From: Rhizophagus irregularis
Taxonomy: Eukaryota
Length of the DNA: 64,000 bases
Reading direction: 5' to 3'
NCBI RefSeq assembly: GCF_026210795.1
Contig: NC_089431.1
Coordinates: 62,001-126,000, forward strand
Made by a program: the position numbers and the translations under genes. The notes under the pieces were generated by a model, which was given only the letters and a program-made list of their open reading frames with translations, made no database searches and was not told the DNA's origin. Of this stretch, positions 1 to 31,746 are shown in pieces (position 1 is the stretch's first letter; each line of letters begins with the position of its first letter).

Positions 1-560
1 AGAAGGAGAACGGAATTAGCAAAAGAAATAAAAAAAAAAGAAAAATGAAAAAAAGAAACAAAAAAATTTCAATCACCTGCCTTTTCACGAAGAACAAGAA
101 CCGAAAACCTAAAATAAGGAAGAAGGAGTAGCAAAAGAAATAAAAAAAAAATGAAAGAACGAAAAAAAAAGAAATATTTACCTGTCTTTTCATGAAGAAC
201 AAGAACCAAAAACCTAAAATAAAAAAGAAGGAAAATGGAATTAGCAAAAGAAATATAAAAAAAAACAAAAGAACGAAAAAAAAGAAATATTTCAATCACC
301 TGCCTTTTCACGAAGAACAAGAGCTGAAAACCTAAAATAAGGAAAGAAAGCGAACGGAATTAGCAAAGGAAATAAAAAAAAATAACCGAAAAACAAAAAA
401 AAAGCACCTTTCTGTGAAAAATGCAAAGAACCAGAACTTAAAAAGAGAAAGAAGACAAACGAAATTAGTAAAGAAAGCCAAAAAAAAATCAAAACAAAAA
501 AAATCAACTGTGAAGAGCTGAAGAGCCAAAAACCTAAAGGACCTTTCTGTGAAGAACTAA
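1..560 (-). repeat. Tandem exon/intron-like repeat (~105-120 bp unit, 32-nt exon), truncated by window start
   Basis: Minus strand repeats ttattttAG|gttttcggttcttgttcttcgtgaaaaggcag|GTgatt/GTaaat, with GCTAAT branch-like motifs and T-rich tracts. Exon copies at 77-108, 182-213 and 300-331. Confidence 0.7.
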
Positions 561-629
561 GTCTCTATAAGAAAATTAGCAGAGGGAGGTTACTAAAAAA
601 AAGATTATCTTTAGATCATCTAATTGATA

Positions 630-789
630 TTGGACCAAACCGATGATATCGGTTCAGCTCGGATTAAAAATTCGGTTCTGGTTCTGGTTCGGGTCTAAAT
701 CAGAAAACCGAACTGGAATCGGATGGGATTTTCGGTTCAAATCCGGTTCTTTACTAAAACTGCACTGAACCGACCCGTTCGGAGCTTTA
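630..789. mobile_element. hAT-like MITE terminus (remnant)
   Basis: Dense ggttc/aaccg subterminal motifs ending in cggagcttta, like the taaagctc/gagcttta ends of the 9838-10846 element. No partner end found. Confidence 0.45.
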
Positions 790-959
790 ATTACTAGTCA
801 TTGCTATTTATCATCTCGTTTGGACATTGTTCCAGTTGGTTCGATTCTAACAAACAACAAAATAAAATAGAAAATCGCAGATGTTTGTTAGAAATAAGAA
901 AATCATTTCGAAGTTATTACTTTCAAAATGTTTGACATGAAATCTTAGGATCTAAAAAA

Positions 960-3900
960 TAAAGTAAAATGAACATTAGTAGAACGTTCGTTAAAGAAGA
1001 ATAAAAAAAAAATTATAAAGAATTTTGAAGATATACCTTCAAATTCTTTCGTCCAGGAGCCAGAGAAAAAAACCTTACAGAAAAAAACAACTGAAACGTT
1101 AGTAAACATTTCACAAATTAAAAAACATGAAAGAATTTTGAAGGAATTTTACCTTTGAAATTCTGTCCAGAAGCTGTAAACCTGCAAAAAGTAAAAAGAA
1201 AAGACAAACGAAATGTTAGTAAATGTTTCGTTAAACATTAAAAAAAATTAATTTCGAAGGTAAATACCTTCGAAATCCTGAAAAAATCTCCAAGTCTGAT
1301 TCGTCTAACAGGGCGGACATGCATTATATCACAATGTCGATCACTTGCCGATCATGATATAAGTGATATCACGTTAAATTTGAAGCTTTATTCCAAGCAA
1401 TAAATGTTCTGACAATTTATGTTAAATTATTTTATTTAATAGTTTCATTTATCAATAAATTAATATAAAAGTATTGTAGCAAAATAAGGTGTGTTTCAAA
1501 AGTTAGATTTTATGTCAAATTTTCAATAATTAATATATATGCTATATATATGCTGATCATCTGCTAACGTGACTTTGAAGCTTCGGGCAAAGCCACAGAT
1601 CTTTGGGTGAAACTTGAAACTTTTACAGTATATTATTTAGGTATTCAAGAATCAATGGCTAAAATAAACCTGGATAATTTTTGATAACCCAAAAGTTATC
1701 ATTAAATAAATGTTTACAATTATTGTAAAATTAATATATGTCTGATATTTGACAAATTCTTTATGAATTATTTTAAGAACTAATTTATTAACAATAAATA
1801 AAATAAAGTAAATAAAATCGAAATTTTTTACATTATTATGTAGAATTTGTGAAAAAACTAATTTAATGGTATTTTTTTATGTGATAATATTGGACAAGTG
1901 ATCAGTAAAATGATCAGCAATTTCATGATAATATGGGGATGTCCGCCCTGTTAGTTCGTCTAAAGAAGTCCAGCGTCCCTATATAAAGAAGAAAGAACGT
2001 TAGAAACGTTCTTTGAAAAAAAAATAAATTTTAAAGTTTTGCAACGAGAGTTGCGAAACTCACCATTTACCCGTTTCGGGAACCTTGGAATACCGAAACC
2101 TACAATAAAAAAGAAAAATGAAACGTTAGCTAACGTTTCATTTAAATAAAAACAAAAAAAAACAGAATTTCGAAGGTTATCTTAGAAATTCTGTTCAGGA
2201 GCGTCCAGAGAGCCGTGTTCCTACAAAATACAAAAATGAACATTAGAAAATGCTTTGTTAAGTATAATTATTAAAAAAAATTTTTTTCAAAGGTTTCACC
2301 TTCGATATGGGAGACCGAACTCATTTTTGGCTTCCTTTACCTAAAAAAAATAAAATACGAACGTTAGTTAACGTTCGTTTAAATAAAAAAGAAAAAAAAT
2401 TTTCGAAGGTTTTACCTTCGATATGGGAGTCCGGAATTCGGTTTTGGATTCCCTTGCCTAAAAAAAAAAGGAAATACGAACATTAGTTATGTTCGTCAAT
2501 AAATTAAATAAAAAAAAATTTTTTTTTACAAAGATTTTACCTTTGTATGGAAAAACCTTTATATGGGAGTCCAAGTTTTCAGCTTCCTTTATCTAAAAAA
2601 AAAGGAAATATGAACGTTAGTTACGTTCGTTAATAAATAAAAAAGAAAAAAAAATTTCGAAGGTTTTACCTTCGATATGGGAGTTCAGAACTTGTTTTTG
2701 GATTCCCTTGCCTAAAAAAAAAGAAATACGAATGTTAGTTAATGTTCATTAATATAAATATTAAAAAAAATAAAATTTTCAAAGGGTCTTACCTTCGATA
2801 TAGGAGTCCGGAATTTGTTTCGGATTCCTTTGCCTAAAAAAAAAGAAACGAAACGTTATAAACTAAACATTTCGTTAATAAATTAATTAAAAGAAATAAT
2901 TTGAAAGTTTTACCTTCAAACAGAACTTTCAAATAGGTCCGGAACATACCTTCAGCGTTCTGGACCTATAAAATACAAAAACAAACATAACTAATGTTCG
3001 TTAAAGTTAAATTATAAAAAAAAAAATATTTCGAAGATTTTTACCTTTGAAATAAACGTTCGGAGCCGTTCTTCAGCGCCCAGGACCTAAAAACATGAAA
3101 AACGAACGTTAATTAATTTTCGTTAAAATAAAATTAAAAAATATTTCAAAGGTAAACTTTACCTTTGAAATAAACATCTGGAGCCATTCTTTAGCGTTCA
3201 GGACCTATAAAACGTAAAAACGAATGTTAATTAACGTTCGTTAAAATAAAATTAAAAAAATATTTTGAAGGTAAACTTTACCTTCAAAATAAATATCCGG
3301 AGCCATTCTTTGGCGTCCAGGACTTATAAAACGTAAAAACGAACGTTAATTAACATTCGTTAAAATAAAATTAAAAAAAATATTTTAAAGGTAAACTTTA
3401 CCTTCGAAATAAACGTCTGGAGCCATTCTTCGGTGCCTAGGACCTAAAAATATAAAAAATGAACGTTAATTAACGTTCGTTGAAATAAAATTAAAAAAAT
3501 ATTTCGAAGGTAAACTTTACCTTCGAAATAAACGTCCGGAGCCGTTCTTTGGCGTCCAGGACCTATAAAACGTAAAAATGAATGTTAATTAACGTTCGTT
3601 AAAATAAAATTAAAAAAATATTTCAAAGGTAAACTTTACCTTTGAAATAAACGTCCGGAGCTGTTCTTCAGCGTCAAGGACCTAAAAATATGAAAAACGA
3701 ATGTTAATTAACGTTCGTTGAAATAAAATTGAAAAAAATATTTCAAAGGTAAACTTTACCTTCGAAATAAACATCTGGAGTCGTTCTTTGGCGTCCAAGA
3801 CCTATAAAACGTAAAAATGAACATTAGCGATGTTCGTTAAACAAAAATATAAAAAAAAATTTCAAAGGTAAAGGTTTTACCTTCGAAATAAGAGTCCAGA

Positions 3901-4200
3901 GCCATTTTTTGGCGTCCAGGACAAGAAAATAATAAACCGAACGTTGGACAACGTCCGGTATATAAAAAATATTAGTTTCGAAGTTTTACCTTGGAAATAG
4001 AGTCCGGAACTGGTACTTTCAGCGCTCTGGACTTACAAAAAAAAAAAAATAAAATGAACTTTAGCTAATGTTTCATTAAATTTTTTTTTTTTTGAAATGG
4101 AGTTCAGGATGTACCTTTTGTGTTCTGGATTAATAAAATGAACATTTTCTAACGTTCTTTAAATAATATTAATATCAAAGTTTGAAATAGAGTACCTTCG
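960..4200 (-). repeat. Micro-exon/structured-intron array (~119-bp unit, 42-nt exons at 3045-3801)
   Basis: Minus-strand unit: tttatAG|gtcctggacgccaaagaacggctccggacgtttatttcgaag|GTaaag. Donor lies in the palindrome tatttcgaaggtaaactttaccttcgaaata (3500-3530). Branch site lies in palindromes such as tgaaacgttagctaacgtttca (2119-2140). Confidence 0.8.
1305..1954. mobile_element. Non-autonomous TIR element inserted into an exon of the micro-exon array
   Basis: TIRs ctaacagggcggacat / atgtccgccctgttag. Flanking direct repeat ttcgt(c); TSD length is ambiguous (5-6 bp). Confidence 0.8.
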
Positions 4201-5268
4201 GCGTTTTGTAAAATGTATTTTTTGAAGGAGATAAAGGAGTCCGATATCTTTTTAGTCCAAATCTCCTGCATGTTGCAGATTATATGCTGAATGTTAAACA
4301 AATTTGCCTTAAAGACTCCGAACCTTGCAAATAAATTTTTTTTTAAAAAAAAAAATTTCTCTGATAAGTTTCAAAGCTTAAAAAACTATAATAGAAATAT
4401 TTTTTCTTTGAAATCTTTAACAGATTATTTCCTAAAAGGTGTTGTAGAAAAAATTATTTCACAAAGTTTTTTACTTTAGTAATAAGTATTGTAGAAAAAA
4501 TTATTTTTTTAAAGTCTTGTAAAGTTTTTTTTTAAAAAAGTATTGTAAAAAAAATTAAATCAAGTTAGAGTTAATCAAAGTTTAAATATTAAATCAATGA
4601 TGAAATTGCAGATCGAACTGATATTTTAATGAAAAAAAAGCAAAAATCTGCAAAATTGCAGACTCCTGCATAAATTTCACATAAAAAAAAGCAGAAATCT
4701 GCAAAATTGCAGATTACAGCAGAAATTCATACATAAAAAATTGGAAACTTGCAAAATTGCAGATTATTGCATAACTTTGTAAAAAATAAAGAGCAGAAAT
4801 CTGCAAAATCGCAGACTTCCGCATAAATTCACAAAAAAAATGCGGAGATCTGCTAATTTTACAGATCTTCGCAGTTCTGCATCTTAAAAAATTTTCCAAT
4901 ATGAGACAATTCGAATGGTGGTAGTTTCATATTTTTATAATTACTGGATGGCGAGATATCACAATTATTATCACTAATACAATAATAGTAAGTGCATGAT
5001 GCATGTGATGATCATTTGTAAAAAAAAAATTTGTATATTTAAAAATATCCCGATTAGTGTTCATATTTATAAAATAAGGCTATTCTTAATAAAGTTAAGG
5101 AAAAAAAATTTTTTATTTGTAAAAAAAGACTGATCAGTCTTAAAAAGACTGCGATCCTTAAAAAGACTAATGGTCTTATTATATGTGATACAGGACCGAA
5201 AGACTGGTCTGTCTTTTTATGGTGTAGGACTGTAAGACCGTAGTCTTTTAGGACCGATGACCATCTTT

Positions 5269-6212
5269 ACACGTGTAGCTTCGATTTAAGCCTATGTTCA
5301 CTTTGTATAATATCAGTGTATAAAGACGCATAATTTCCTTATATGATATATACAGTCAACTCTCTTTATAGTCACACATTTGGGACAGTCCATATTTGGT
5401 GATTATAAAAAGATGTGACTATATAAAAAATTTCTTATATTAGTATATTATAATTCCGGCCAAAAATTAACATAATTTTGGCCAAAATTATACTTAAAAC
5501 TTTATTGTATCGTAACTCCGCCAATATTAATTGTAGAGAGATGATCGTACCGCCATTCGATTCGTCTCAATGAGACGGTTCCAATGGTATAAAACACATC
5601 GAAATCCAATCACTAGATTAATTTCTGAAATTAAAAAATATTAAATGGTTTTTGAGTAGTAACTCCGTCAATATTGATCACAGAGATATGAGCTTACTAC
5701 CATTCGATTCGTCTTGATGAGGCGATTCCAACGAGCTATTAATCGTCTTTTTACAATCATTAGGTACCGAGAAATTTAGCAAAATGTTAAATGGCGCAGT
5801 AAACATAAATCAAGAAATATAATAATGCCGATGCTATACATTTTATTGAATAACTCATCAACTAGTGATCGTAAAAAGATGAAACAACTACCATTCGATT
5901 CGTCTCAGTGAGACGATTCTAACAAGCTATGATACATCTTTGTACGATTATTAGATGCCAAGTTATTTAATATATTCTTTATATAACTGTGATTATAAAC
6001 AGTTCTTTTTAATATAAGATTTTTGATGATAGGTGTGATAGTGACTATAGATAGATTGTGACTATATAGGATAGATTTTAATAATAAAATGTTTTGAACA
6101 TTCAACTGGTGTGACTATATAGTAGAATGTTACTATAATGGGAGTGACTATAGAGGAAGTTGACTGTATATTACACAAAGCGAACATAGGCTTAAATCGA
6201 AGTTACACATGT
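5269..6212. mobile_element. Small MITE split by a pogo-like insertion
   Basis: ~44-bp inverted repeats acacgtgtagcttcgatttaagcctatgttcactttgtataata / tattacacaaagcgaacataggcttaaatcgaagttacacatgt. Confidence 0.75.
5353..6166. mobile_element. pogo/Tc1-like non-autonomous element (copy 1; copy 2 at 21130-22081)
   Basis: TA|cagtcaact ... agttgactg|TA ends. Internal repeats with ccattcgattcgtct motifs. Highly similar to 21130-22081. Confidence 0.9.
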
Positions 6213-6306
6213 TAGGAAGATCGCTACAGAGCTAGAATTATGGAATTAGAATACAGATAAAATTTTAGCAAATTTATAAAGTCATGTGATTTTATAATAG
6301 GCCAAT

Positions 6307-9029
6307 AACCACCCTAGTGTCACCTCCAAAAAATGGTAGTCGGATTCTAATCTGCCAGATTACATGTGATTTCAAATGCTAATTTTTGATACTTTCATGA
6401 GTATTTAATAATTTTCAAATTTATTTTTTTAAACACATTATTACACATATTTCAAATTGCCAATATGTTTCTGAAATTTAATACTACTATTCCCAATATC
6501 TTATATTCTTATTAAAATCTTTCCAAGTTCTCAGCATAATTCTACAATTTTCAAGTGCTACAATATCATTATTCATTTTTTCCAATAAATTAAAATTAGA
6601 ACAAATATTTTTTAACTTTGACTTGTTATGTGACTCTTCTAATAATTCTTTGGTCTAAGAATTAATATTTACATCAATAAAAATTAAAAATTACTTAGTT
6701 ATATGCAATATTCATGTATACCTTATTTAGTATTTCTTGCAAATAATTTAAATCAGTTTCATACATATGCTGTTTATCGTCACTTTCAATAATATAATTA
6801 TCTTCATTTTCAGTATCTTGAGTTATTGGAATGTTTAGAATTGTATGATCTGGTGTATTCTCTAAGCAAAATACATTTACCAATTCACCTTCATAGGAGG
6901 AAATTAATGGATAATTTCCATTTCTCTGTACCTTTAAATAAATAATAAATATTAGATATAGTACTGTATAAATATAAAAAAAGCAAACCACTTACTTTTT
7001 TAAAAAATATTCCATCAACTTTCTCAACAGAATTAACTAAATGTTTACACAAAAAAACCTGGCTTTTTATATATGCAGGACATGAACATATCCACTTAGC
7101 TGTATTTGTTAAATATTTGCCATTTAATTGAGTAGGTTTTTTTTCATGTTGTTTTCATTCCTTTTTGAAATCTTTTCATCATGGTACAGAATAACGTCCT
7201 TGCTGTAGTAATTGAATTCAATATAACTGCTGGTTAATGACTTTTTTAACAAGAATAAAATATAAATAATCATGCTTAATATGCCACCAATGAGATTCAA
7301 CAACCATTGTTGTTTTAATATGACTAACATTTTTGTTAGCTGCCTGCGCCCATAAAATCCATTTGCCTTTAGAATACCACTCCTTCCAAAAATAAACCAC
7401 AATCGAAGCAAATCATTGTTCTTACAAAATTGTATTATTTCTCCTACACATTCTTTCCAAATTTCATTTGCATTTGTAGTAAAAGTACTGGCAAAATGAT
7501 CCAGAATTTGAATTATTTACAATTTTCCAGTTAACATCTATTGTTGAACACTCTTCATGTGCAATCTTTGGATTATAAGAATGGTAAAAACTTGTTTTAT
7601 TGGATGATAAACGTTGTTTAATAGCACGTTGAATATGCCAAACACACAATTGCAAGTGAGTTTCAGGCCATACTGTTTGTGCTGCATTGATTTCTGCAAA
7701 ATCTTTATCAGTTAAAATGTAAGGAGTATCTTTTAAATTTCGTTCTTTTAAAGCTTGCATCCACTGTATAAGAACTCCAGTTATATTTCGATTTTTTTCA
7801 GTTGAAATTAGAAGATAGCTAAGAGGAAACCCAGTACCATTAATTACACCCATAATAGCATATAGTTCCCATACCAAATTATTGGTATTGTATGTTGCAT
7901 CAATTTCAATTGCATCAAATTTATTATAAAGTAATTGGTAAAATAATACTGTTAAAAATCCTAGAGCAGGCATAGAAGTATTGAGATTATCTAATATAAT
8001 TTCTTGATTAAATTCTTAATAAATATTTTGTTGACAATAAAAGATCAGGATCACGACAGTATGTTTTATGAGATTCAATGGACCACCAATAATAGGTTTG
8101 TTGAACTGTTATATTCTCATATCCATTAATATGATTTTCTTGAATCTGGTGAAAAATTTCAGAAACGGAACAATTAAGATTATCTTGGATAAAGTTCTTA
8201 ATTTCAAGTGTTGTCTTAACATGCTTTGGTCGGAAATGTAACATTTTGTGAGAATATTCAACATTAATTAAATTCAAGTTTGAAAATATTTCTATATTAA
8301 TTATTCCTTCACAATGATAGCGTTCTAAATATGCAGGTGTATCTCTTTGTTTGTCTAAATCATGATATTTTGCTCTTCGTTTTCCAAGTTCAATTCGGCA
8401 ATTACAGTAGTATATTATATGAAAAGAATTTTCTTTTTGAATTTTCTTATAATAAACCCATGAATAGCCATCATCTTCTGAAATAGAATTTATTATACGA
8501 TGACCAATTTCATGTTCAATATTTTCTTTGTCAGATTCATTGTTTTCTAAAATAGCATCATGAAAAGATGATAATTCAATATTAAAAGCTAGACTTAACT
8601 CTTCATTTTCTCCTTCATAAAATTCATTAACATTTTTTAAAGAAGTTAAAGAATTGTATATAATTTCAGTAATATCCAAATAATTAATTACGTCATATTG
8701 TGGCTTATTTTTTGTAAAACGGGTAGTCTTTATATTATTTTGGCAACGTAAACACTTTTTTAAAGCAACACCTTTTTTATTCAGAAACTCTTCATAATTT
8801 CGAAGAACATAACACCCTTTACAGACTTTATTTTATTAGCTTGACATAATTAATAAAAAAATAGTTCATTGAAATGAAGAGAAAAAAACTGATTTTAAAA
8901 TTGATCAAACAAATCGTGCATCAAAATAGATGATCGACATGAGATTACCAAAAATTAGTATCTGAAATTATGTGCAACCGGTAAATTAGAATCCGGCTAC
9001 CATTTTTTAGAGGTGACGCTAGGGTTGTT
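6307..9029 (-). mobile_element. Mutator-like element (MULE) with ~90-bp TIRs and 10-bp TSD
   Basis: TSD ataggccaat at 6297-6306 and 9030-9039. TIR aaccaccctagtgtcacctccaaaaaatggtagtcggattctaat matches the reverse complement of 8940-9029. Confidence 0.92.
6500..8850 (-). pseudogene. Disrupted MULE transposase with SWIM zinc finger
   Basis: MULE DDE motifs DATYNTN...LTDKDFAEINA...LCVWHIQRAIK (7464-7973) and SWIM-like WICSCPAYIKSQVFLCKHL (~7035-7110). Broken by stops and frameshifts; ends approximate. Confidence 0.85.
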
Positions 9030-9179
9030 ATAGGCCAATCAGAAGTTTCAGACAATTTCAGGAGTTTCAGAAAGATTTTGGGATTTCAGAATTAGTTTCA
9101 GAAATAAAATTCTGGCCAAAATTATTTCAGAATTAGAAAATAATTTCGAGCGGCAGCTTTAGTATTAACTAGTGAGAAG

Positions 9180-9837: not shown

Positions 9838-10846
9838 TAAAGCTCTAATCGGTCTGGCTCTAATCTAGCAATCTGGACTAAAAATTCAGATTGATCCAGT
9901 CTGGATTGATGCTTCAATCTGGACCAAAATATTTGGTCTGATCTGGTCCAGTTTTAGATTATAAATTTAATCCAGACCAAATTTTATGGATTGGATCAGA
10001 CTGGATCGAATAAACGTTTTCACAATAGTTTTATATTAAAACCATTGTGATTGTAATTATTAAATAAAAAAAATGTTGTGAAACATTTTTTTAATATATT
10101 ATTATAAAAAAATGTTTACGCAACTTTTCTATAATTAATTTAATGAAAAAATGTTGTGAAAACATTTTTTTAAAATATTATTATAGAAAAACGTTTTTGC
10201 AACATTTTTATAATTATTTAATAAAAAATGTTGCAAAACGTTTTTTCAAAGTAATTTTAACTAGAAAAACATTTTTGCAACGTTTTTTCAATTAATTTAA
10301 TGAAAAAACATTGCAAAAACGTTTTTTTAATATATTATTATAGAAAAAACATTTTCGCAATGTTTTTATAATAATTTAATGAAAAAATGTTGCGAAATGT
10401 TTTTTCAAAGTAATTTTAACTAGAAAAACGTTTTCACAACATTTTTTCAATTAATTTAATGAAAAAACGTTGTGAAAACATTTTTTTTAATATATTATTA
10501 TAGAAAAAACGTTTTTGCAACGTTTCTATAATAATTTAATGAAAAAACATTGTGAAACATTTTTTCAAAGTAATTTTAATTAGAAAAACGTTTTCACAAC
10601 ATTTTTTTAATTAATTTAATGAAAAACGGTGTGAAAACATTTTTTTAATATATTATTATAAAAAAAACACATAACATTTTTTTATTATAAAACCAGACTG
10701 GACTGGACTAAAATAACTGGTCCAGTCTGGTCTGGTCTCAGATTCTCCTTTTAATATAAACCAGACTGGACTGAAATGAACTAATTTTTCAGTTCAGTCA
10801 TGAGTTACTTCTCAACCCGGACTAATCCAGACTATTTAGAGCTTTA
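9838..10846. mobile_element. Non-autonomous hAT element with internal palindrome array
   Basis: TIRs taaagctctaa / ttagagcttta. 8-bp TSD atttatcc (9830-9837, 10847-10854). ctgga/ccaga subterminal repeats; interior 10020-10690 of tandem aaaacgttgcgaaacgtttt-type hairpins. Confidence 0.92.
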
Positions 10847-13373: not shown

Positions 13374-14594
13374 AATAATTAGTATTATATAATTATCTTG
13401 GCTTCTAATAATTCAATTTGAACAAACTTTTTTTTGTTTTATAAAGCTAGATTTATAGAAATAAATGAGTGCTATAAATTAAAAAAAAAGTTTATTAAAA
13501 TTGGATTACTAGAAGTCAAGATATATGGGCTGATTTGTCTACCTTTAATTAAAATATTGATTTTATTACATTTTTATTATACAAAATACTATATAATTTA
13601 CAGTAAATTAAGGATGAGTATTAAAAAATTTTTATTTAATGTTATTATACTATAATTTGGTGTAAATATTTCTTTTAAATTAATATAATTCTTAGCACTT
13701 ACTATATATATTAAAAATTTGTATCTCATCTTTAAACGTGAATATCTTTAGATTCAATAATCCAATCGGCAAGCTCTTTTTTCATTCATATAAACCAGAT
13801 CAAATGCTTTCCAAAAAGTCTAAATTTATAAAAAATGGATCAGTGAATCCCAAGATATTTGCATTTAAGCATGTTAAAAAGTTCAACTCTCAACTTTAAA
13901 CGTAAATATCTCCAGATCTAATAATTCAATTGGCGAGTTCTTTTTTTGCCTATAATATCAGCAAGTTTGAAAAGTGTTGATTTACACCAGTATACGCATT
14001 GATCGACACTAGCTAGTTGTTCAACGCGATTTACAATATTAATCAACACCCGTATATTAGAGTTTACTAACACATAATGTTAATATACGTGTTATTCAAT
14101 TCTAATGTGTAGTTTAATATATTATGCATTGTTGTTCAATGTGCTGTATATTAACACATACTATATATATATACAACTATTTTAATTAAATTAAATTATA
14201 TTTATTTTTATTCACCTTAGGAATCGAACTAAACATCTCCTTATACTATTAATTATCTTACGATCTAACCACTGTACTATTTAATTTAAGTATATATTAT
14301 ACAGTCAACTCTTCTTATAGCGAATTTTGATATAACGAATTTCACAATAAAATGAACCTTTAATGTAATACAGAAATTTATATATGAAAAATTTTTTGTT
14401 ATACCAAATTTTACTAATTAAATGTGGTATAACGTATAGTACATAAACCCATATATATAAATGACCTTTTTTGTAATAAATTTTTTTCATAACGAACTTT
14501 TTTCTGAATATAACGAAGATTTTTACAAGATGATTTTTACCATAAGGGATAATCTGACTTTCATTTTACATGAAATTTCTTTTCAAATATAGTA

Positions 14595-17500
14595 CATCAG
14601 CAAGTTTGAAAAGTGTTGATTCACACCAGTATACGCGTTGATCAACACCAGCTAGTTGTTCAATGCGTTTTACAATATTAATCAACACCCGTATACTGGA
14701 GTATATCAACGCTTAATGTTAATATACACGTCATTCAACTCTAATGTGTAGTTCAACACATTATGCATTGTTGTTCAACGCCGTATATTAACATATATTA
14801 TATATATTTTAAATTAAATCAAAATTATATTTATTTTTACTTACCTTAGGAACTGAACCAAACACCTCAACTTACACTATTATTTATCTCACGATCTTAA
14901 CCACTGCACTATTTAATTCAAGTATATATTTATATATATTAAACTTAATATTTAAAAAAAAAATTATTTCAGCAATTGCGTAATGTACTCTATATCTATC
15001 ACGTGATACTAGAGTAATAATTACCGCTGCGGCAGTGCTGCGGCTGTGGTATAGCAAAAAAAAAATTAAGCTTTTTTTGGCAAAGCTTAATTTTTTTTTT
15101 GCTTCGTTCTTCCCCTTCCCTTTCGTTTTTCCATTACCCTTCGTTCTCCCTTCATCCCTATAAAAAGTTTTATCCAAAAACTATGTAAACTCCGTAATAT
15201 AAGGTCATTAATTCCTGAAATATGAGCCTTATACGGAAAAATGTTGAACTTTTGGTAAGTTTCGCAACGAAACTGCGAAACTACTTTTTCATTCTTTAAC
15301 GAAACGTTTTTTAACGTTTCAAAAATATTATTCTTTTTTTTTTTAATCAGAATGTTGGCTAACGTTCTGATTTATTATTTTTTTATTAATTTTTTAAATC
15401 GGAACGTTGGCTAACGTTCTGATTTATTATTTTTTTTTAATTTCTTTAATCGGAACGTTGGTTAACGTTCCGATTAATTTTTTTATTTTCATTTTTTATT
15501 CGGAACGTTGAAAAATGTTCCAAAATAATATTTTTTTTTTTAATTCTTTAATCGGAACGTTGGCTAACATTCTGATTATTTTTTTTATTACATTTTTTTA
15601 ACGAAACGTTGAAAACCGTTTCGTAAATAACTTTTTTTTTTCATTTTATTTAATTGGAACATTGACTAACGTTCTGATTGTTTTTTTATTTCCTTTTTTA
15701 ACGAAACGTTGAAAAACGTTTCATTTAATCTTTTTTTTTAATTTCTTTAATCGGAACGTTGGCTAACGTTCCGATTATTTTTTTTATTACATTTTTTTAA
15801 CGAAACGTTGAAAACGCTTTAGTAAATAACTTTTTTTTCATTTTATTTAATCGGAACATTGACTAATATTCCGATTATTTTTTTATTTTTCCTTTTTTTA
15901 ATGAAACGTTGAAAAACGCTTTCATTTAATCTTTTTTTAATTTCTTTTAATCGGAACGTTGGCTAACGTTCTGATTATTTTTTATTACATTTTTTAATGA
16001 AACGCTTGAAAACGCTTTCGAAATAACTTTTTTTTTCTTTTTTTATCAGAATTCGGCTAACGTTCGATTTTTTTATTTTTTATTCTTTTTTTAACGAAAC
16101 ATTTTTAACGCTTTCATTAATAACTTTTTTTTCATTTTTTTTAATCAGAACATTGGCTAACGCTCCGATTTACATTTTTTTTCTTGTTTTAATGAAACGC
16201 TTTTTAATGTTTTGTTAATAACTTTTTTTTCATTCCTTTTAATCGAACGTTCTAACGCTCCAATTTTTTTATTTTTTCTTCTTTTAACGAAACGCTGAAA
16301 AACGTTTCTTGAATATTTTTTTAATTTTTTAATCTAACGCTTTTTAACGCTCCAAATAATTTTTTTTAATTTTTTTAATCGAACGCTATAACGCTCCGAT
16401 TTTTTCATTTTTTAATAACAAACGCTAAAAAACGCTTTCAAAAATTTTTTTTTAATTTTTTGTTTTTTAACGAAATGTACCTAACGTTTCAATTTTTTAT
16501 TTTTTTTTAGGACCGCGGCTTTCTGGATGGCTCACGGACGGGAATTTTGAAGGTAAACCTTCAAAATTTTTTTAATTGTTTGTCTTTAACGAAACATTTC
16601 TAACGTTTCGATTTTTTGTTTTTTTTATATCCAAGGCTTTGCTGATGGCGGCTCACAGATCGGGAATTTTGAAGGTAAACCTTCAAAACTTTTTTAATTG
16701 TTTGTCTTTAACGAAACGTGTCTAACATTTTGATTTTTTGTTTTTTTAGGACCGCGGCTTTCAGATGGCTCACGAACGGGAATTTTGAAGGTAAACCTTC
16801 AAAATTTTTAATTTTTTGTTTTTAACGAAACGTATCTAACGTTTCATTTTTTCATTTTTTTAGGACCACTTCCTGGATGATTCACGGACAGGTAAAATTA
16901 TTTTTTTTTTAATTTATTTTAACGAAACGTGACTAACGTTTCGTTTTTCTTTCTTTTTTAGGTCTGCAGATTTCTTTTTCTAAACGGGATTTCGAAGAAC
17001 TTTAATGTTATGGTAAGTTTCACAACGAAACGTTGTGAAACTTCATTTATTTTTTAATTTTTTTTTTAGAAACGTTTATTAACGTTTCTTTAAATTCTTT
17101 TTGTAGGTCTTTTTTTTGGGAAGCAGAAAAAAGGGTAAGTTTTGAAGCGTAATTTTACGCTTCAAAACTTTTAAAAAAAATTTTTTTTTTAGTTTTTTAT
17201 ACTAACGTTTCCTTTATTTTTTTTGTAGGTTTTTTTTGGAAAACGGAGGAAAGGGTAAGTTTTGAAGCATTTTGCTTCAAAACTTTTTAAAAAATTTTAT
17301 TTTTAAAAATTTCTTTTATAAGGAAACGTTTCTAACGTTTCCTATATTTTCTTTGTGTAGTACCTTCGGCGTGTTCAAACTTCGGATCTTGGATATTGTA
17401 AGTTTTGAAGGGTTTTCCTCGAAATTTTAATTTTTTTAATTTTTTATTAGGAAACGTTTACTAAATGTTTCCTTTATCCTTTTTGTAGGATCGGAAAGTT

Positions 17501-18786
17501 TGGAACGGAAGAATGATTGGGTAAGTTTCGTAATGTTTCATTACGAAACTTAATTTTTTTTTATTAGGAAACTCTTACTAATGTTTCTTTTATTCTTTTT
17601 TTAGGTTTCAGGAAACTTAATGTTAGAAAAGGGTCTTTAAACGGTAAGTTTCGTCAGAAACTTCCATTTTTTTTTTGTCTTTTTTTCTTTAAGATACATT
17701 CTAATTGAACGTTTCTCTTATTTTTTGTAGGTTCGGCCAACCTCTGGGACTTGAAATTTTGGAAAACGGTAAGTTTCGTACATTTCGTTACGAAACTTCC
17801 ATTTTTTTTTTGTTTTATTTTTTAGTAAGAAACGTTCTAACTGAACGTTTCTCCTTTTTTTATAGGTTCGGTTTCTGGGAATATGGAAATTCAGATAATG
17901 TAGGTTTCGTAACATTTTTTCGTTACAAAACCCATTTTTTTTATTTTTTTAATTAGGAAATGTTTACTGACATTTCCATTTTCTTTTTTTTATTAGGCTT
18001 CAGATTTTGAATTGCGGATAGTAATGGGTAAGTTTCGCAACGAAACGTTGTGAAACTTTATTTTATAATTTTTTTTTTAAGAAACGTTGACTAACGTTTC
18101 TTTTCTTATTTTTGTAGGTCTACAGATTTTCTGGTAGACAAAATGGTAAGTTTCACAATTTTTGCGAAACTTAATTTATAGTTGACTTTTTTTAGGAAAC
18201 GTTTGTTAACGATTTCTTTTTTCTTTTTTGTAGGCTTTTTGAAATATGAATCAGATCGTGTAAGTTTCGTTAACGAAACTTTTAATATTGTATTTTTTTT
18301 AATCGAAACCCCACCTTGTTATGGTTGTGTCACCAGGGGTGCTATATCAACGGAAATTTAGTACGTTGATCGCTTAAAAATCTGTGGCAATCCAATTATA
18401 ACAAGAGTTTTAAACATTTGACAATTTACATTACTGAGAAATATCAATTTGTAGTGTAGTTAGATAGATAATGAATGTATTTTTATTGTACTATTACTAC
18501 TATATATATAAATAAATTTACAATATTTTACGATTAATAAAATTTATATGTTGCTATACGCATTTTTAATATCAATATACGCGTTTTTATACAATGTATA
18601 CACGTTTTTAAACTATCGTTGTTTTACTATGTGTAGTTTTACACTTAAATGAGTGTTGATTTACACGTTTTTCAACGTTTTTAAGTGGCGTTGATTGACA
18701 AAGGGTTCGTTTCCCTACGTTTTTTGGTGTTGAGCAACACATGGCATTTTTCAACACTTTATACGCCTGTTTAAAACTTGCTGATG
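14595..18786 (+). mobile_element. 4.2-kb non-autonomous TIR element (TA TSD) whose cargo is a micro-exon/structured-intron array
   Basis: TA|catcagcaagtttgaa ... ttaaaacttgctgatg|TA (15/16 TIR match). No transposase ORF inside. Confidence 0.88.
15255..18282 (+). other. Array of about 15 micro-exons (25-51 nt) separated by hairpin-structured spliceosomal-type introns; probably non-coding
   Basis: YAG acceptors after T tracts at 16510, 16749, 16863, 16961, 17106, 17228, 17360, 17488, 17604, 17730, 17865, 17996, 18117 and 18233. Each exon is followed by GTAAG/GTAAA (one GTAGG), and CTAAC/CTAAT-like sites lie ~20-30 nt upstream of each AG. Confidence 0.75.
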
Positions 18787-19468
18787 TAATTTCACACATT
18801 ATTTATATTTTTATTATAATAATAGATAGATGTTCTTTATGTTTCGTTCTTTTTGTTTTATTTTACATATTTCCTTATATAAAAATGCAAAAGGTAAACT
18901 CAAAAAAAAACTTGACAAAGTTGAAGACCCTAAAAGTTAAGATGAAGTTCCCAAAAAAAAATGAAAGTCTTTTACTGCTATGCAAAAAAAAGAAGTCTGT
19001 TTAAAAAAAATAGCAACATCTTTTTTAAAACAAAAAGACTTAGCTAATTAATATGATATTAGTGAAGGAATGATTATTTCAGCATTTTTATGAGCCATTG
19101 TGCTGTGGATAGTATTTATATCGAAGCTGGATTAAAGCGTGAAGAAAAATACCTTTTCCTATTATTGAAGTAGCCTTAACCCTTTGGGTAGATAATGCAA
19201 TTCAGGCTAATCTTATCATTACTAATAATATTCTTTCAACCAAGGCTTTAGAATTTGCTTACTTGTGCAAAGAAGAAAAGTTTAAAGGATTTAATGGATG
19301 GGTTGACAATTTTAAAAAATGCTACAATTTAAAACAATATAATATTTATGGGAAAGCGGCAAGTGCGCAATTTCAGAATCTTGAAGCAATGCATAAAAAT
19401 CTTCACCAAATTTTAAAAAATTATAACCCTAAAGACATTTTTAACAGGTCTTTTTTGGAAGATGCGGC

Positions 19469-20944
19469 TAGGGCTCCGATCAGTTCAGTTTGGTATGGTT
19501 TTTGCCAAAACTGAAACCGAACCGAATTGATCGGTAACGGTATTATTAATTACCGAAACCGATCGGTTTCGGTAATCATCAATACTGAAACTGACCGGTA
19601 ATTACCAAAAACTAAACCGATTTACCAATTCATTATCGTGGTTCGTTTTTAACGTTTTCGTAACATTTTTATTAAAAAAACGTGCGAAAACTTTTTTTTT
19701 GGTGAAATTATTAATAAAAAACATTTTCGCAACATTTTTTGTTAAAACAATTGAAAACGTTGTGAAATGTTTTTTATTATTAAATTACTTGATAAAAAAT
19801 GTTTTCGCAACATTTTTTGGAAAAACAATTAAAAACGTTTGCGAAAAATGTTTTTTTTTATGAAATTATTAATAAAAAACATTTCACAACGTTTTTTGTT
19901 CAAATAATTAAAAATGTTGCGAAAAACGTTTTTATTTGCTAAATTACATGTTAAAAAACATTTCGCAACATTTTTTAACTATTTTAATAAAAAAATGTTG
20001 TGAAACGTTTTTTTATTCATTAATTTAATTGTTAAAAAACGTTTCGCAACGTTTTTTAACTGCTAAAATAAAAAAACGTTGCAAAATGTTTTTTTATTCA
20101 TTAAATTACATGTTAAAAAACGGTTTGCAACGTTTTTTAACTATTTTAATAAAAAAACGTTGTGAAGCGTTTTTTTATTCATTAATTTAATTGTTAAAAA
20201 ATGTTTCGCAACATTTTTTAACTGCTAAAATAAAAAAACGTTGCAAAACGTTTTTTTATTCATTAAATTATATGTTAAAAAATGTTGCAAAACGTTTTTT
20301 TATTCATTAATTTAATTGTTAAAAAACGTTTCGCAACGTTTTTTAACTGTTAAAATAAAAAAATGTTGCGAAACGTTTTTTTATTCATTAAATTACATGT
20401 TAAAAAACGTTTTGCAACATTTTTTAACTATTTTAATAAAAAAACATTGCGAAACATTTTTTATTCATTAATTTAATTGTTAAAAAACATTTCACAACGT
20501 TTTTTAACTGTTAAAATAAAAAAACGTTGCAAAACATTTTTTTATTCATTAAATTACATGTTAAAAAACGTTTTACAATGTTTTTTAACTATTTTAATAA
20601 AAAAATGTTGCAAAATGTTTTTTTATTTATTAATTTACATGTTAAAAAACGTTTCGCAACATTTTTTAACTATTTTAATAAAAATGTTGTGAAACGTTTT
20701 TTTAAATAGCTATTTATCGAAACTGATGGTAAAATTTACCGAAACTGATCGGTAAACTTATCGAAAGTTTCGGTTTAGTAAATCGGTTTGGTAAATCGCA
20801 AAACCAATACTGAAACTGCAGTTACCAAAACTGATCAGTAATTTACCGAATGATTCGGTATTGGTAAATTGCAAAACCGAAATCGATCTGATACCGAAAC
20901 TGATCAGTTCGGTTCGGTATTTACCGATACCGATCAGAGCCCTA
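19469..20944. mobile_element. Non-autonomous hAT element with internal palindrome array
   Basis: TIRs tagggctccgatc / gatcagagcccta. 8-bp TSD gatgcggc (19461-19468, 20945-20952). accga subterminal repeats; interior of tandem aaaaacgtttcgcaacgttttt hairpins. Confidence 0.95.
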
Positions 20945-21129
20945 GATGCGGCCTAGTCATACAATATCTAATAGTCAAGTTATTGGAATAAAACAGTCAA
21001 AAGATTGTGTAACTATTTTGCTTACCTGTAACGTAACTGAAAGTGAAAAATTGTATCTTTGTTTATACACAAATATGAAAATCTCCAAGTTCTTAAAAAT
21101 ATTGATAAAAAAACACTTCCAGTTGATTA

Positions 21130-22081
21130 CAGTCAACTCTCTTTATAGTTACACATTTGGGACAGTCCATATTTGGTGATTATAAAGAGATGTGACTATA
21201 TAAAAAATTTCTTATATTAGTATATCATAATTCTGGCCAATAATTTTAGTCAAAATTATACTCAAAACTTTATTGTATTGTAACTCCGCCAATATTAATC
21301 ATAGAGAGATGATCTTACCGCCATTCGATTCGTCTTGATAAGACAGTTCTAATGGTATAAAATACATCGAAATCTAATCACTAGATTAATTTCCAAAATT
21401 AAAAAAATATTAATGGTTTTTGTGTAATAACTCTGCCAATATTAATTCTAGAAAGACGATCCTACCGCCATTCGATTCGTCTTGATGAGACGGTTCTAAT
21501 GGTATAAGATACATCAAAATCCAATCACTAGATCAATTTCAGAAATTAAAAAATATTAAATGGTTTTTAAGTAATAACTCCGTCAATATTGATCACAGAG
21601 AGATGAGCTTACCACCATTCGATTCGTCTCGATGAGGCAATTCCAACGAGCTATAAATCGTCTTTTTACAATCACTAGGTACCGAGAAATTTAACAAAAT
21701 GTTAAATGGCGCAGTAAACGTAAATTAAGAAATATAATAATGCCGATACTTAACATTTTGTTGAATAACTCATCAGCCAGTGATCGCAAAAGGATAAAAC
21801 TACCACCATTCGAGTAATCTCAGTGAGACGATTCTAACAAGCTATGATACATCTTTGTACAATTATTAGATGCCAAGTTATTTAATATATTCTTTATATA
21901 ACTGTGATTATAAATAATTCTTTTTAATATAAGATTTTTGAGGATAGGTGTGATAGTGACTATAGATAGATTGTGACTATATAGGATAGTTTTTAATAAT
22001 AAAGTGTTTTGAACATTCAACTAATGTGACTATATAGTAGAATGTGACTATAACGGGAGTGACTATAGAGGGAGTTGACTG
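21130..22081. mobile_element. pogo/Tc1-like non-autonomous element (copy 2)
   Basis: TA|cagtcaactc ... gagttgactg|TA. Homologous to 5353-6166 with one extra ~140-bp internal repeat. Confidence 0.93.
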
Positions 22082-23968
22082 TATTACTGGAATACTAAAA
22101 GTTGGATGCAGGTATCAATTTAAAACTAATATCTCAAGAAATTTGATTCCAAAATGAGAAATCAAGGTCATAAAATTCTTCTTCTCATTGATAATGCTCC
22201 AACCCATGCCCTATACGAAACTACATATCTCATAAATATTACTATCAAATATCTTCTTCCCAATACTACCGCGCACATACAACCTTGTGATCAAGGAATT
22301 ATTAATAGTTTCAAAATAAGTAATAAATTACTTCAACTTATAAAAATTCTATATTATAAAACATACTTTAATTAATGATTATTTTATTTTTTAGGCGTAA
22401 TATCGAAAGTTATTTTTACATAATCAAGTTAAGGCATATGATAAATATAATGAATATGGCATTAATCCTGTTGAAATTAATATTAAGAAGTGCGTTGAGT
22501 ATGTTGCGCATGTATAGAATAATGTTGCACAAGATACGATTGAAAATTGTTGGATGAAGGCGGATATTTTGCCTAAAATTGATGAAAATGAAATTATTAT
22601 GAACAATAATACTGATGCACAAATTTATTCCATGCATATAAAAGAATTGGAAGATATTCAAGTGTTAATCGATAAACTTAATCCTGAAAATCCCTTTAAT
22701 GCTAAAGAATTTATTCAATATGATAATGATGAAATTACAACAGAAATGCTATCTAATGAAGAAATTCTCAAAGCAGTTATTCCTAATAATCAAAAAAAGG
22801 AAATAGAAGAATCTTTGGATCCTTTACTATTAATTATTCATAGCGAAGTTATTGAATATTATGATAAGGTGATTTTATATTTAAAACAGCAAGAAAGTGA
22901 TTTTGATATGAAAAAGGAAGAATTGAAATAGTTAAAAAGCTAAAAAAAGAAGCTTTAAAAAAGCGTTTTATTTCTACAAGGCAAATTAACCTTAATAGTT
23001 TTATTAACTGTTAATAGTAAATGAATGAGATTATTAATATTTGGAGTTTTAATAAATTAGTTATATAACAGAGGCTTTTGTATTCTTATATATAATTAAT
23101 AAATTCACAAATTGCACTACCTTGCAAAAAAAAAGAATGAGATTATTAATTAAAAATTTTTTTTTACATAACAAAAGTTTAATTTTTTTGTAATACGAAA
23201 TTATAATATACATATATATACATAATATAATATAATACTTTTTGAAATATATATAATAATACTTTAAAAAAAATTTTAAAATTGCTTTAATTAATAAAAT
23301 TTAGATATTAAAATATTTAATGAATTACTTAATATTATGTAAAATCTTCATTATATGATATACCAAATAATCTGTAGTGCTATACTGAATAATCTGTTAT
23401 GGTATTACCAAATTTTCTTATAATGAAGGCCTGATCGGCTCAGACGTCTAATTCGTTATAAGAAGAGTTGACTGTATATATTAAAATTAATATTTAAAAA
23501 AATATTATTTTATACTAAGCATTGCGTAATGTACTCTATATCACATGTATCACGTGATAATAGATTATTAATAATTACTGCTGCAGACTGCAGTATGGCA
23601 AAAAAAAAATTAAGCTTTTTTTGGCAAAGCTTAATTTCTTTTTTTTCACTCTTTCTCCCCTTCCCTTTCTCTTTCATTATCTCCTTTCCTTTTTGCTCTT
23701 CCCTTCTTTTTCTCTTTCATTATCCCCTTCTCTTTTCGTTCTTTCTTTTACTTGTTATTATTTTCTAAGCAGCTCCTATAAGAACTATTGAAAAAAGAGA
23801 TGAAGATTAAGTAAAGCATTGGGAACATTAGAGCATTTAGAATGGACAAAGTTGTCATGGTAAAGAACATTAATACTATAAAAAATACATTATATTTTCA
23901 ATTTCTCATTATTTATTCCTGTTTTTGAATCTCTGAAAGTACTCGTATTTTCATTTTTTTTCAGTATA

Positions 23969-25699: not shown

Positions 25700-26290
25700 T
25701 TTTTAGCTAACTGGACAGGTTTACTTTTGATTCTTTTTTCTCTGAACTTTTGCACTCTTCTAAGAGTAACCTTTTAGCTTCTTGAACTTTAAAGAAGGTA
25801 TATTATTTTGTTTCATTACTAATTTCATTAAAATTTAGTGATGGCTCATTATAGTAAGTCTTTTCAGTTTCAGTTTATTTCATTTTTTTGTTATTTCATT
25901 TTTTTCATTATTTAAGTTTTGACTGCATGGCCTGGAATACCGGTAAGTTTCAGTTTTCTTTTTATTTGTAATCTTGTTTTTCATTAACTGAATTCATTTT
26001 ATTCTTATTATTTAGGTTTGAAACTTATCAGCTTAGTGATAATTATAAAGGGAGAGAATTTTTTTATCTTAAAAAACAATACTAATATTCGTTCTTTTAC
26101 TCTCTTTTGTTAAGATTTAAAAGAAATTGAAACAGGCCACTTGTGATAAAATAAGGTACTGTTTCAGAGAGTAGGATTTTGTTTGATATTGTTTTTTTGT
26201 TTAAGAACATCTACTAACATTCTTTTCTTTTTTAGGTTCTTTTTTGGCAATATTGGTGTGGATATGATCAAGAGTTGGTAAATATCCCAA
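25700..26290 (+). other. Degenerate micro-exon array
   Basis: Successive short exon-like blocks such as ttag|tgatggctcattata|gtaagt, taag|ttttgactgcatggcctggaataccg|gtaagt and ttag|gttc...gagttg|gtaaat, with ctaat/ctaac branch motifs. Confidence 0.5.
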
Positions 26291-27369
26291 TGCATATGAC
26301 ATCAAAATATAAATTTGCATTTCCTCTATGTAATATATGTCAAACTGCAGGAAAATTTTTTTTTGGAATAATTGAATCAAAACTAATAGTCGAAAAAGAA
26401 AGAAAGATTGTTAATATTTTGAAATATAAACGAACATATAATTGCAATAAAAGTATACAATTTCATTTTATACTTTCATAATATTAAATATAAAAATTTT
26501 TGGCCAAGATTAAGGATAATTCTGGCTAAAATTATGTTTGTTCGTTGTTATTCAATACTCCCACCTGTAAGCTTACATATTATGTTAAACACACTTTTTA
26601 ATTGTTCCGGCCTTATCAATTATTATATTTGACTGATCTCGTAGAAAATTCTTTCACTAATTTTATAGATTGATACTGTAAAATATAAATTATAAGAAAT
26701 ATTTGTGTATAATGTTTCTAGCATGACGAATATACCTACAAGTAATAATACGATAATTTATAAAATAAATTGTGAAGCTTTATATTTATTATGATAAAAC
26801 ATCTAATATACCGTATAGTAATTATAATAAAATTAAATGTTAATTTATAATTTTTAATACTATAGAAAGTTAGAATTTAAATTATATTTTGTCTTTAATA
26901 GATTTATTTATTTATTGATAGATCGATAACAATTCGGAATACTTAAAAAGAATTCTAAAAAAGATTTTTGATCGTTAATTTTAGATTCATCTAATGATAA
27001 GATTGGTCAATGATTTTCACTAAGTGCAAGAAAATTTTTTTTCAAGATTTCAAAAATTCTTTTCGGAGTCAAGTTATCTTAATTTATTTTGTGCTACATA
27101 CCGGAGTTACAATACTAAGTAGCCATCGAATAAATTCATTGAATTCTTCTATTGTCAAAACACCACATGATTGTAAATTCACGTATCAGAATGTTCTCAA
27201 TTTCACAGATGAAAAATTATTATTAATCTTTACCAAGTAGTATGTACCTTTGAATTGTTATTTCAATCAAAAAGTATATTTTTTTTGGAAGTAGAACTGT
27301 TAGATTCTTGCCTTAATAAAAGTTATGCTCCAACTCCCTGTAAAAAATTTTATCTGTAATAAATTTTTT

Positions 27370-27770
27370 ATAGGATCTTGTAATTATTTAACAAGATACA
27401 CAACAATTACAACTGAACTAGTAAATAAATGGCACAAGAATACTATTGCTGTAGGTTCAAGCTCCTTATATGTGCAATTCTAAGTACCACTAATTGCGTA
27501 ATTATTGGATACTATTAGCTGGAATGATCGGCTGAATAGGTCTACGATGAAGACCGTGTTCAAGATTTTCATAGCGAACTTATTATTTACCATAAAAATG
27601 GATCTATACCCTGCGATCGGATTATGCAGACCTCTGAATAAAATGAATGATGAAGCAAAATCTTCAAAATAATTTCATCTATTGCACCCGAAGTGTTTCA
27701 TACTCAAGCAATGGGTATATGTAGTTTTAGAATCATTATATAGGAAATTCTTGCGTATTACAGTATATTA
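27370..27770 (+). pseudogene. Highly degraded protein kinase fragment
   Basis: Residual GLCRP, IAPEV and SF-II--EI (SFGIIMWEI-like) motifs with many lesions. Confidence 0.55.
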
Positions 27771-30700: not shown

Positions 30701-31746
30701 AAACTTGTATTTTAGTTGATCTTGACCAAATGCGATTGTTAAAAAAGATTTCACAATTCATTGTAATTTCTATAACTTTATAATCCTCCTGCATAAATTT
30801 CCTTAATAGAAATAATGGCTTTATGATAATCTGAACCTTCGCTGCTTTAATCTTTGTTTCTTTAAAATATTGTCTTTATATTGCACAAAGGAGCTTTAAT
30901 TTAATGCTGCATTAGTACAAGTTAATTAAGATATCACATGCATAGTTTTTTTTTTAGTTTAAGGGGAAAATTTTCTAAATTTCATTGTTAAAAAAGATGT
31001 ATGTTCATAATATTTTCACGACAAATTAAAAGTTTTAAACTTTGAAGCATCTAAACTCTAATCTTTTCCTTTTAAATGTAAATTATTTAAATTCTATTTG
31101 TCGCAATTAATCGGAATATGAACTATTTTTTTTTTGCGTGATTTTATTATTACTGAATTCGTCCGGCTTAAAATGTGATAAATATTTTTTGCTGTAATGT
31201 TTTGCATCCTTTGCGTTTTTTCATGAGAACATTAAATCAATATGATACTCCGGAATCCGGAATACTAATCATTTCTTTTGAATTGTAAAATTTTCTAAAT
31301 TTCTTTTAAATTTTTCTTTGAATAATTTTTTGGAAAATTGTGATAGTAAATTTTCCGTATCCAGTATTTGTCAAATTGTTCTCAAATATTCTGTGCATAT
31401 TGTTTATCGTTTAGGCCGAATTAAGTAATAAATAGAATGATTTTGTAGATTCTAGAAATTCTAGAATGGAGAAGTTTTCCAGAGAATAATTAGTCAGAAC
31501 GAATGATTTTCATTGTGAATATCATACTTTTAAAAGTAATTATTTTTATTTACCCTTTTTTGGAAGGTTCTTTTATAAAAATTCTGTATAAAAACGGCGT
31601 TTTTTTGTTCCAAATAATTTTTTTTTTTTTAAACTCACTTTTATAAATAAAAGAAATAACAGTGAAATTTTTTATAACAAAAATTTTGTTATAAAAATTT
31701 AAAAACCACTTTACTTTATTAGTATTTTCCGCTTATAAAAAAAAAG

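Follow-up and report, generated by a model that had tools for sequence, protein, structure and literature searches.

PlavakaB elements form a CACTA-related lineage of DNA transposons (CMCT clade; Kojima 2025) with 5'-CATCA..TGATG-3' ends plus target-site duplications (TSDs) that measure 2-3 bp (PMC12730594), and in the supplement of that article CATCAGCAA opens 9 of the 28 PlavakaB consensus starts examined, with 55 occurrences overall. In Rhizophagus irregularis, Plavaka has been reported as prevalent (PMC11075540) and about a quarter of the genome corresponds to uncharacterised repeats (PMC8647823). CACTA-type elements with spliceable cargo have also been described, namely Pack-CACTA and the soybean element Tgm-Express1 (PMC6379663, PMC1947982). 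What is said here of articles cited by PMC number or preprint identifier refers to the parts of each that were available. The present analysis concerns an element located at 14595-18786 of a 64,000-nucleotide stretch of R. irregularis DNA (positions 62,001 to 126,000 of contig NC_089431.1; hereafter the window), the interior of which is occupied by a chain of putative micro-exons and hairpin-bearing introns. The reading favoured here, held with about even confidence, is that of a non-autonomous PlavakaB-type element holding a truncated fragment from a wider family of non-coding arrays amplified in tandem, which would once have been selected for splicing as the leader of a transposon transcript and would now be a passenger.

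The element opens with CATCAGCAAGTTT and closes with its exact complement, its terminal form being CATCAGCAAG...CTTGCTGATG. The terminal inverted repeats (TIRs) are identical at 13 of 13 positions and then at 16 of 17, and a TA is present at each side. These ends agree with the 5'-CATCA..TGATG-3' termini of PlavakaB and the TA agrees with its 2- or 3-bp TSDs, a TA by itself fitting Tc1/mariner, ESTA and PHISTA equally well. No transposase open reading frame (ORF) or Pfam match, as would be expected of a complete Plavaka, was found in the element, which on its sequence is classed solely as non-autonomous with PlavakaB-type ends. The terminal 300 bp are rich in TYAACRC motifs (7 at the left and 4 at the right, against 0.18 per 300 bp window-wide), which resemble the subterminal repeats of CACTA elements. 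An earlier note on this DNA, made from the letters and their ORFs, had described an element with TIRs and a TA TSD and without protein, and the ends, the TA duplication and the absent coding capacity are all confirmed. Its further statement that no described class of transposable element (TE) has such a design is not supported, since the ends are PlavakaB-type and CACTA-type elements with spliceable exon/intron cargo are known (PMC1947982).

Inside these ends lies an array of 16 donors and 15 intron-exon units, all on the + strand. The donors are GTAAGT (11), GTAAAN (4) and GTAGGT (1), the acceptor is TAG in 14 of the 15 units (TAT in unit 2), and the branch A sits 23-27 nt from the acceptor. 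From unit 1 to unit 15 the exons measure 42, 44, 41, 28, 51, 28, 26, 37, 32, 39, 38, 34, 31, 28 and 26 nt; introns 2-15 are 70-106 nt long and the donor-to-donor spacing is 101-143 nt. Intron 1 contains about 21 branch-type hairpins with a period of about 50 nt and no exons. The earlier description of a one-strand chain of about 15 micro-exons, with 14 intact acceptors spaced by some 100-145 nt, is thus borne out by 15 units with exons of 26-51 nt: the combined pattern of branch site, T-tract, YAG, exon and donor was found 13 times on the + strand and never on the - strand, against a mean of 0.07 and a maximum of 1 in 500 dinucleotide shuffles. The GT is kept in 16 of 16 donors and the AG in 14 of 15 acceptors, compared with 6-13 of 16 at donor positions +8 to +14; these counts are partly circular because the splice sites were chosen by motif, a circularity that does not extend to the unbroken period. 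Mean pairwise identity is 0.49 among exons, near the shuffled value of 0.43, and 0.67 among introns (shuffled 0.53), so that the exons are indeed more diverged than the introns, as the earlier note had it.

Predicted hairpins accompany most of the splice signals. Folding z-scores of -2 or lower were obtained in 12 of the 16 donor windows and 10 of the 15 branch windows, and in 0 of 10 windows of a comparison set (five hand-picked, unverified introns of ordinary genes). The proposal that nearly every donor opens a hairpin therefore holds for these 12 donors, with two types of hairpin rather than one: in units 2-4 the exon end is paired across the junction, and in units 6-16 the hairpin begins at +3. 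The branch site CTAAC, which was thought to be the loop of a second hairpin, does have one in those 10 windows, but only CTA is looped, the branch A closing the stem in 11 of the 12 strong stems (base pairs of the branch hairpins were counted by script). Each intron would then have two separate local stems of 8-14 bp with the T-tract between them. In the GTAAGTTT-type donor stem (13 donors, 12 focal and one from the sister array described below), 6 of 12 pairs have changes on both sides, and only 0-5 of 500 shuffles reach four of five covariation measures, the fifth being unexceptional and the tested structure being derived from the same sequences. Because splice signals and hairpins have outlasted exon similarity, the comparison of units points to past selection on intron architecture.

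These same features, the conservation of intron architecture over exons and the hairpins over both 5' splice site and branch point, speak for the model of the earlier note, in which the element is a dedicated mobile non-coding RNA unit whose product is the introns or stalled splicing (stable introns, small RNAs or spliceosome-coupled RNA interference, RNAi); escape from silencing by means of introns had been put forward as well. Small interfering RNAs triggered by stalled spliceosomes are in fact described in Cryptococcus (PMC6643885, citing Dumesic 2013). The model is nevertheless judged decidedly unlikely. The array is truncated and atypical of the TIR family (see below), the stems, at 8-14 bp, fall short of the length that mirtrons require, and the triggering of RNAi would presumably hurt the carrier element. 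Moreover, a C box was present in 0 of 14 introns, which showed no H/ACA layout, and Rfam returned nothing at gathering score, only sub-threshold microRNA (miRNA) matches at 15050-15106. What remains of the mobile non-coding RNA unit is a non-coding DNA transposon with conserved intron architecture, and the view of the array as its defining cargo is not supported. Two specific candidates were also rejected: a small nucleolar RNA (snoRNA) host gene, for the lack of C box, H/ACA layout and Rfam match, and mirtrons, as the introns have two separate stems with a T-tract between them and not a single pre-miRNA hairpin.

The truncation is seen at the right end of the chain, which stops in the middle of intron 16 at 18309, exactly where homology to the metagenome locus L047 starts. 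L047 is 82% identical over the 477-bp right-end module and has a different interior, in which about 260 bp contain no array unit. The window also has an older copy of the left end, which shares 14596-15136 and then diverges, the following 420 bp being free of array units. Both relatives thus diverge where the end modules stop, which corresponds to the copy-variable interior of Pack-TYPE elements, as judged from two copies with short interiors. Cut in mid-intron and absent from the interiors seen in these copies, the array is truncated, and its role as defining cargo of this TIR family is not supported as such. Neither is it the only cargo, as had been claimed, the element also having a 1.26-kb first intron, the palindrome 15186-15241 and end modules of 540 and 477 bp. 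In DNA contigs of X15, possibly the very source of the window, the summed depth was 25,700-34,100 at the left end, 210-3,660 in array bins and 166 in the junction contig, a rough measure that gives no copy number and of which the contrast alone is used; the contigs included the exact left junction, plus two related flanks whose match stops at 14594. A scan of metagenomes with the TIR pattern gave 78 loci, of which L047 alone is related. The TIR patterns were found in three viral loci, all unrelated, and in 0 genomes, and the intron motifs in 0 viral contigs and 0 prokaryote genomes.

Introns of this design are also found outside the element. A sister array, running from 4400 to 850 with no such TIR nearby, gave five matches (E<0.001) to a hidden Markov model (HMM) built from 14 focal introns, which had 0 matches in the reversed window; focal exons compared with this array score about the same as shuffles. 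Because the design also exists outside the element and the chain is cut in mid-intron, what the element carries is likely one part of a wider non-coding repeat family. Homologous introns outside the element might hint at a donor locus of the Pack-TYPE kind, but the exons there are unrelated, and the array may instead be a native leader left by deletion. The sister array lacks the acceptor in 3 of 16 units scanned. Within its 7-copy block, exons and introns both show differences at 23-24% of CpG sites, compared with 5-6% elsewhere, an excess that is consistent with methylated repeat DNA, CG methylation having been reported on TEs of R. irregularis (PMC8647823).

A set of homologous, structured introns separated by exons many of which are not homologous could also result from introner-like elements inserted singly, every 30-50 nt, into an older transcript. 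This is highly improbable, as intron and exon were duplicated together in units 1-4, in units 6-7 and in the sister block, and the design was seen in 0 of 5 ordinary-gene introns checked. The HMM detected no isolated copy within the 64 kb, every match lying in the two arrays and none being dispersed in genes, and introner-like elements were rejected within that range.

Another possibility, rated as quite unlikely, is that the array is the remnant of a protein-coding micro-exon gene that lost its frame, either a TnpA-like second transposon gene or a repeat protein similar to those of micro-exon genes (MEGs). The exons are GC-richer than the introns (0.31-0.57), 42 nt is the length of the exon from which units 1-3 derive and of most exons in the sister array, and in the seven units of the sister block one frame is free of stops over 98 codons. 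Yet only 3 of the 15 focal exons are multiples of three, which agrees with the earlier remark that exon lengths do not keep frame, and every frame of the joined exons (525 nt) is interrupted by 6-8 stops, the longest open run, of 57 aa, being equal to the shuffle mean. In addition, substitutions in the sister block are distributed over codon positions as 9/10/11, without codon bias, and protein searches with the exon-bearing frames, all unspliced, retrieved nothing related, the only hits being two chance bacterial repeat proteins. The ATG ORFs of at least 50 aa that overlap the element are three, of 63-87 aa. None of the seven window frames tested against Pfam came near the cut-off (one had E=0.045), all Atlas hits were below 0.9, and the joined exons showed no unusual fold (z +0.67). 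A MEG proper was rejected on the basis of its exon lengths and stops.

Several observations weigh against the favoured reading, the first of which regard the nature of the hairpins. The palindrome AACGTT is 19- to 70-fold denser in the five TE-internal arrays (5.6-21.5 per kb) than in the rest of the sequence (0.3 per kb), and the hAT-like interiors 10068-10668 and 19640-20710 have the AACGTT/TTTCGCAAC palindromes of the donor hairpins without any splice units. Because the same palindromes fill these splice-less elements, and intron 1 has amplified its hairpin without exons, it cannot be taken for granted that the hairpins are RNA devices, and they may be unrelated to splicing. Furthermore, covariation among tandem palindromes can come from template-switch repair without selection. 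The palindromes and intron 1 would suit a function at the DNA level, with inverted pairs of a CpG-containing motif, multiplied in tandem, either being bound by an anti-silencing protein that the transposon encodes or acting as self-correcting palindromes, and with splice signals inherited from one ancestral intron that no longer matter; the targets of VANC, a possible parallel, are tandem repeats (PMC5735166). Such a function is considered unlikely to be the explanation, given that donor, branch A (at 23-27 nt), T-tract and AG strictly follow one another on a single strand in 15 units with near-random exons, and that DNA binding would not need AG/G or the branch spacing.

The second set of contrary observations comes from RNA. 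Reads were mapped to 14450-17260 only, that is, short of the junctions of units 8-15, and amounted to 366 in X21 (polyA RNA) and 387 in X24 (probably RNA), of which just 10 and 17 had at least 99% identity. GT..AG ends were found in none of the 15 joints examined among 43 in this interval, where high-identity reads are few, and two acceptors are crossed by X21 reads (15 and 11) that continue, unspliced, into other exons. The latter reads imply the presence of intron-retaining RNA or of DNA from other copies; any spliced read derived from a copy whose exons differ would have been unable to map to this stretch. Unspliced near-identical pieces were also seen in X5, which may be DNA and hence was not used as evidence. 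Finally, just two other copies of the ends were seen, with short interiors (about 260 and 420 bp) and one of them, L047, chimeric in appearance; the scans of sequence collections, which gave L047 as the one short relative, produced no autonomous parent or donor locus. The splice signals are also nearly complete (1 of 31 lost), so that the present copy could itself be functional.

If the array is, as favoured, a carried piece of a once-spliced leader, its history may be viewed as follows. The element would be mobilised in trans by a Plavaka transposase. The units would multiply through slippage or unequal exchange of a hairpinned intron plus short exon, as suggested by units 1-4 and the sister 7-copy block, which are recent duplicates, and by intron 1, which would reflect the same process on the branch hairpin alone. 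At the source locus, selection would have preserved the GT and AG, the branch A, the T-tract and the pairing of the stems, while the exons drifted. The putative benefit is that an intron-dense leader would cause transposon RNA to be handled like host mRNA, and hairpins over both reactive sites might slow or gate splicing. The present copy would have become a passenger, either as the leader of an autonomous parent after internal deletion or by Pack-CACTA-style capture.

A broader idea, possible but doubtful, is that DNA transposons of several superfamilies in arbuscular mycorrhizal fungi share and swap a non-coding splicing module made of 15-25 tiny exons and of introns with a hairpin over 5' splice site and branch point, selected since dense, gated splicing would decide between export of the RNA as mRNA and RNAi. 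If true, such a swapped module would represent a new kind of regulatory cargo in transposons and might account for some of the repeats that are still unclassified in R. irregularis.

The coordinates of the features are given in Table 1.

Table 1. Features of the element 14595-18786 and related features of the window
Feature	Position	Strand	Remarks
Left TA target-site duplication	14593..14594	.	
Left TIR, PlavakaB-type CATCAGCAAG start	14595..14611	+	
Left-end module (~540 bp)	14595..15136	+	Common to older copy; 7 TYAACRC motifs in first 300 bp; pyrimidine-rich at end
Short palindrome of very high-copy repeat	15186..15241	.	Just ahead of first donor
Intron 1, 1,256 nt	15255..16510	+	Predicted donor hairpin, ~21 branch-type hairpins, branch site, TAG
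Units 1-4, recent tandem duplicates	16511..16891	+	Exons 42, 44, 41, 28 nt; donors of introns 2-4 in predicted junction-spanning hairpins
Units 5-15	16892..18259	+	Introns 70-106 nt, most having a predicted donor hairpin of GTAAGTTT type and a further one at the branch site; strongly diverged exons of 26-51 nt
Intron 16, severed at start of its own branch hairpin	18260..18309	+	
Right-end module, 477 bp	18310..18786	+	Subterminal motifs; right TIR 18770-18786; 82% identity to L047
Right TA target-site duplication	18787..18788	.	
Older copy of same left end, 85% identity	13956..14301	+	Split by pogo-like element, resumes 23475-23679
Pogo/Tigger-like host element	14302..23474	+	CAGTCAACTC ends, TA flanks, HTH_Tnp_Tc5 remnant 19143-19511
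Sister exon-intron array, ~23 units	850..4400	-	Outside these TIRs; introns homologous, exons unrelated, many 42 nt
Third exon/intron-like array, different unit type, 118-bp period	1..620	-	Inside hAT-like end at 789; runs off window

The window has a GC content of 27% and contains kinase, F-box, subtilase, MULE and Tc5 genes, the subtilase having 98% identity to a protein of R. irregularis. The element was inserted into a TA of the pogo-like element, which itself interrupts the older copy of the same left end. The nest at 13956-23679 has four levels, in which the old PlavakaB-type copy received the pogo-like element and the latter received the newer PlavakaB-type copy, a hAT-like element and a pogo-family miniature inverted-repeat transposable element (MITE; ~21128-22084, 87-92% identical to 5351-6169). 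The hAT-like element (19469-20944) is non-autonomous, with TAGGGCTC ends and an 8-bp duplication; inside it, CpG palindromes form an 80-bp tandem array that lacks splice units, and an older relative lies at ~9838-10840. Elsewhere, a MULE element at 6297-9039 has inverted ends of about 103 bp and a transposase interrupted by stops, and the sister array, located downstream of a hAT-like end at 5269, is interrupted by a MITE at ~1315-1958.

Some features of the end modules and of the palindrome may also be mentioned. The pyrimidine-rich end of the left-end module is a possible transcription start; its stretch 15102-15150 is resembled by a 19-bp purine/pyrimidine-skewed repeat present 33 times at 52154-52778. 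In the same module, an outward-facing, canonical donor occurs on the minus strand at 14846 (AAG/GTAAGT), where the older copy has AAG/GTGAAT. The palindrome 15186-15241 (~55 bp) reaches a summed X15 contig depth of about 400,000, compared with about 170 at the insertion junction, with loose ends on both sides, and it is also the deepest point of the stretch in X24 and X5. On L047, an acidic open stretch of 31 codons (640-732, minus strand) stops some 190 bp short of the right-end module that the two loci share, without Pfam or Atlas support, and the contig beyond it is GC-rich and bacterial-like; the stretch gives a weak hint of the gene end of a coding family member in the same direction.

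In the literature searched, which mostly leaves out subscription journals, no account was found of doubly hairpinned intron/micro-exon arrays in transposons of Glomeromycota. The array motifs were not found in the supplements of PMC11075540 and PMC8647823 (one file excepted), and curated TE libraries could already hold the family; the available part of bioRxiv 2022.10.19.511543 has no mention of such an array, and the introns of Glomhopper (PMC13465315) lie within a coding Crypton gene and differ from the present array. Within these bounds the array class appears to be new, transposons with spliceable cargo and tandem motif arrays being already known. One uncharacterised R. irregularis repeat thereby gains a definable unit, the doubly hairpinned intron plus micro-exon, and its carrier is placed among PlavakaB-type elements. 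Should the arrays undergo splicing, they would offer a natural system for studying how the density of introns and the masking of splice sites influence whether transposon RNA is expressed or silenced, the RNAi repertoire of this fungus being large. In the unspliced case, they would be splice-site mimics likely to mislead gene annotation.

Among known systems, introner-like elements and the sister stwintrons of fungi are likewise families of related, structured spliceosomal introns, but the present units are in tandem and duplicated together with their exon, with no dispersed gene insertions seen. Schistosome MEGs share the long runs of tiny exons derived from tandem duplication; they are protein-coding and have symmetric exons, whereas here 3 of 15 exons are in frame and the array is inside a transposon. 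The snoRNA host genes GAS5 and UHG are similar in being non-coding and in having conserved introns and poorly conserved exons, and differ in that the present introns show neither a C/D nor an H/ACA layout and lack a match in Rfam. The VANC-target repeats of Arabidopsis VANDAL elements are also short motifs tandemly amplified in non-coding parts of DNA transposons (PMC5735166); here the motifs form inverted pairs that are linked with splice signals, and no binding protein is known. PlavakaB elements have the same CATCA..TGATG ends, often with CATCAGCAA, a 2-bp TSD and a non-autonomous member, PlavakaB-N1_FiHe, but the described families are from Agaricomycotina, the available description mentions no micro-exon array, and the present element is without transposase (PMC12730594). 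In Pack-CACTA and Tgm-Express1, non-autonomous CACTA-type ends equally surround an exon/intron cargo that varies between copies; their cargo consists of pieces of protein-coding host genes, whereas that of the present element is non-coding and made up of related introns arrayed in tandem, two hairpins being predicted for each (PMC6379663, PMC1947982).

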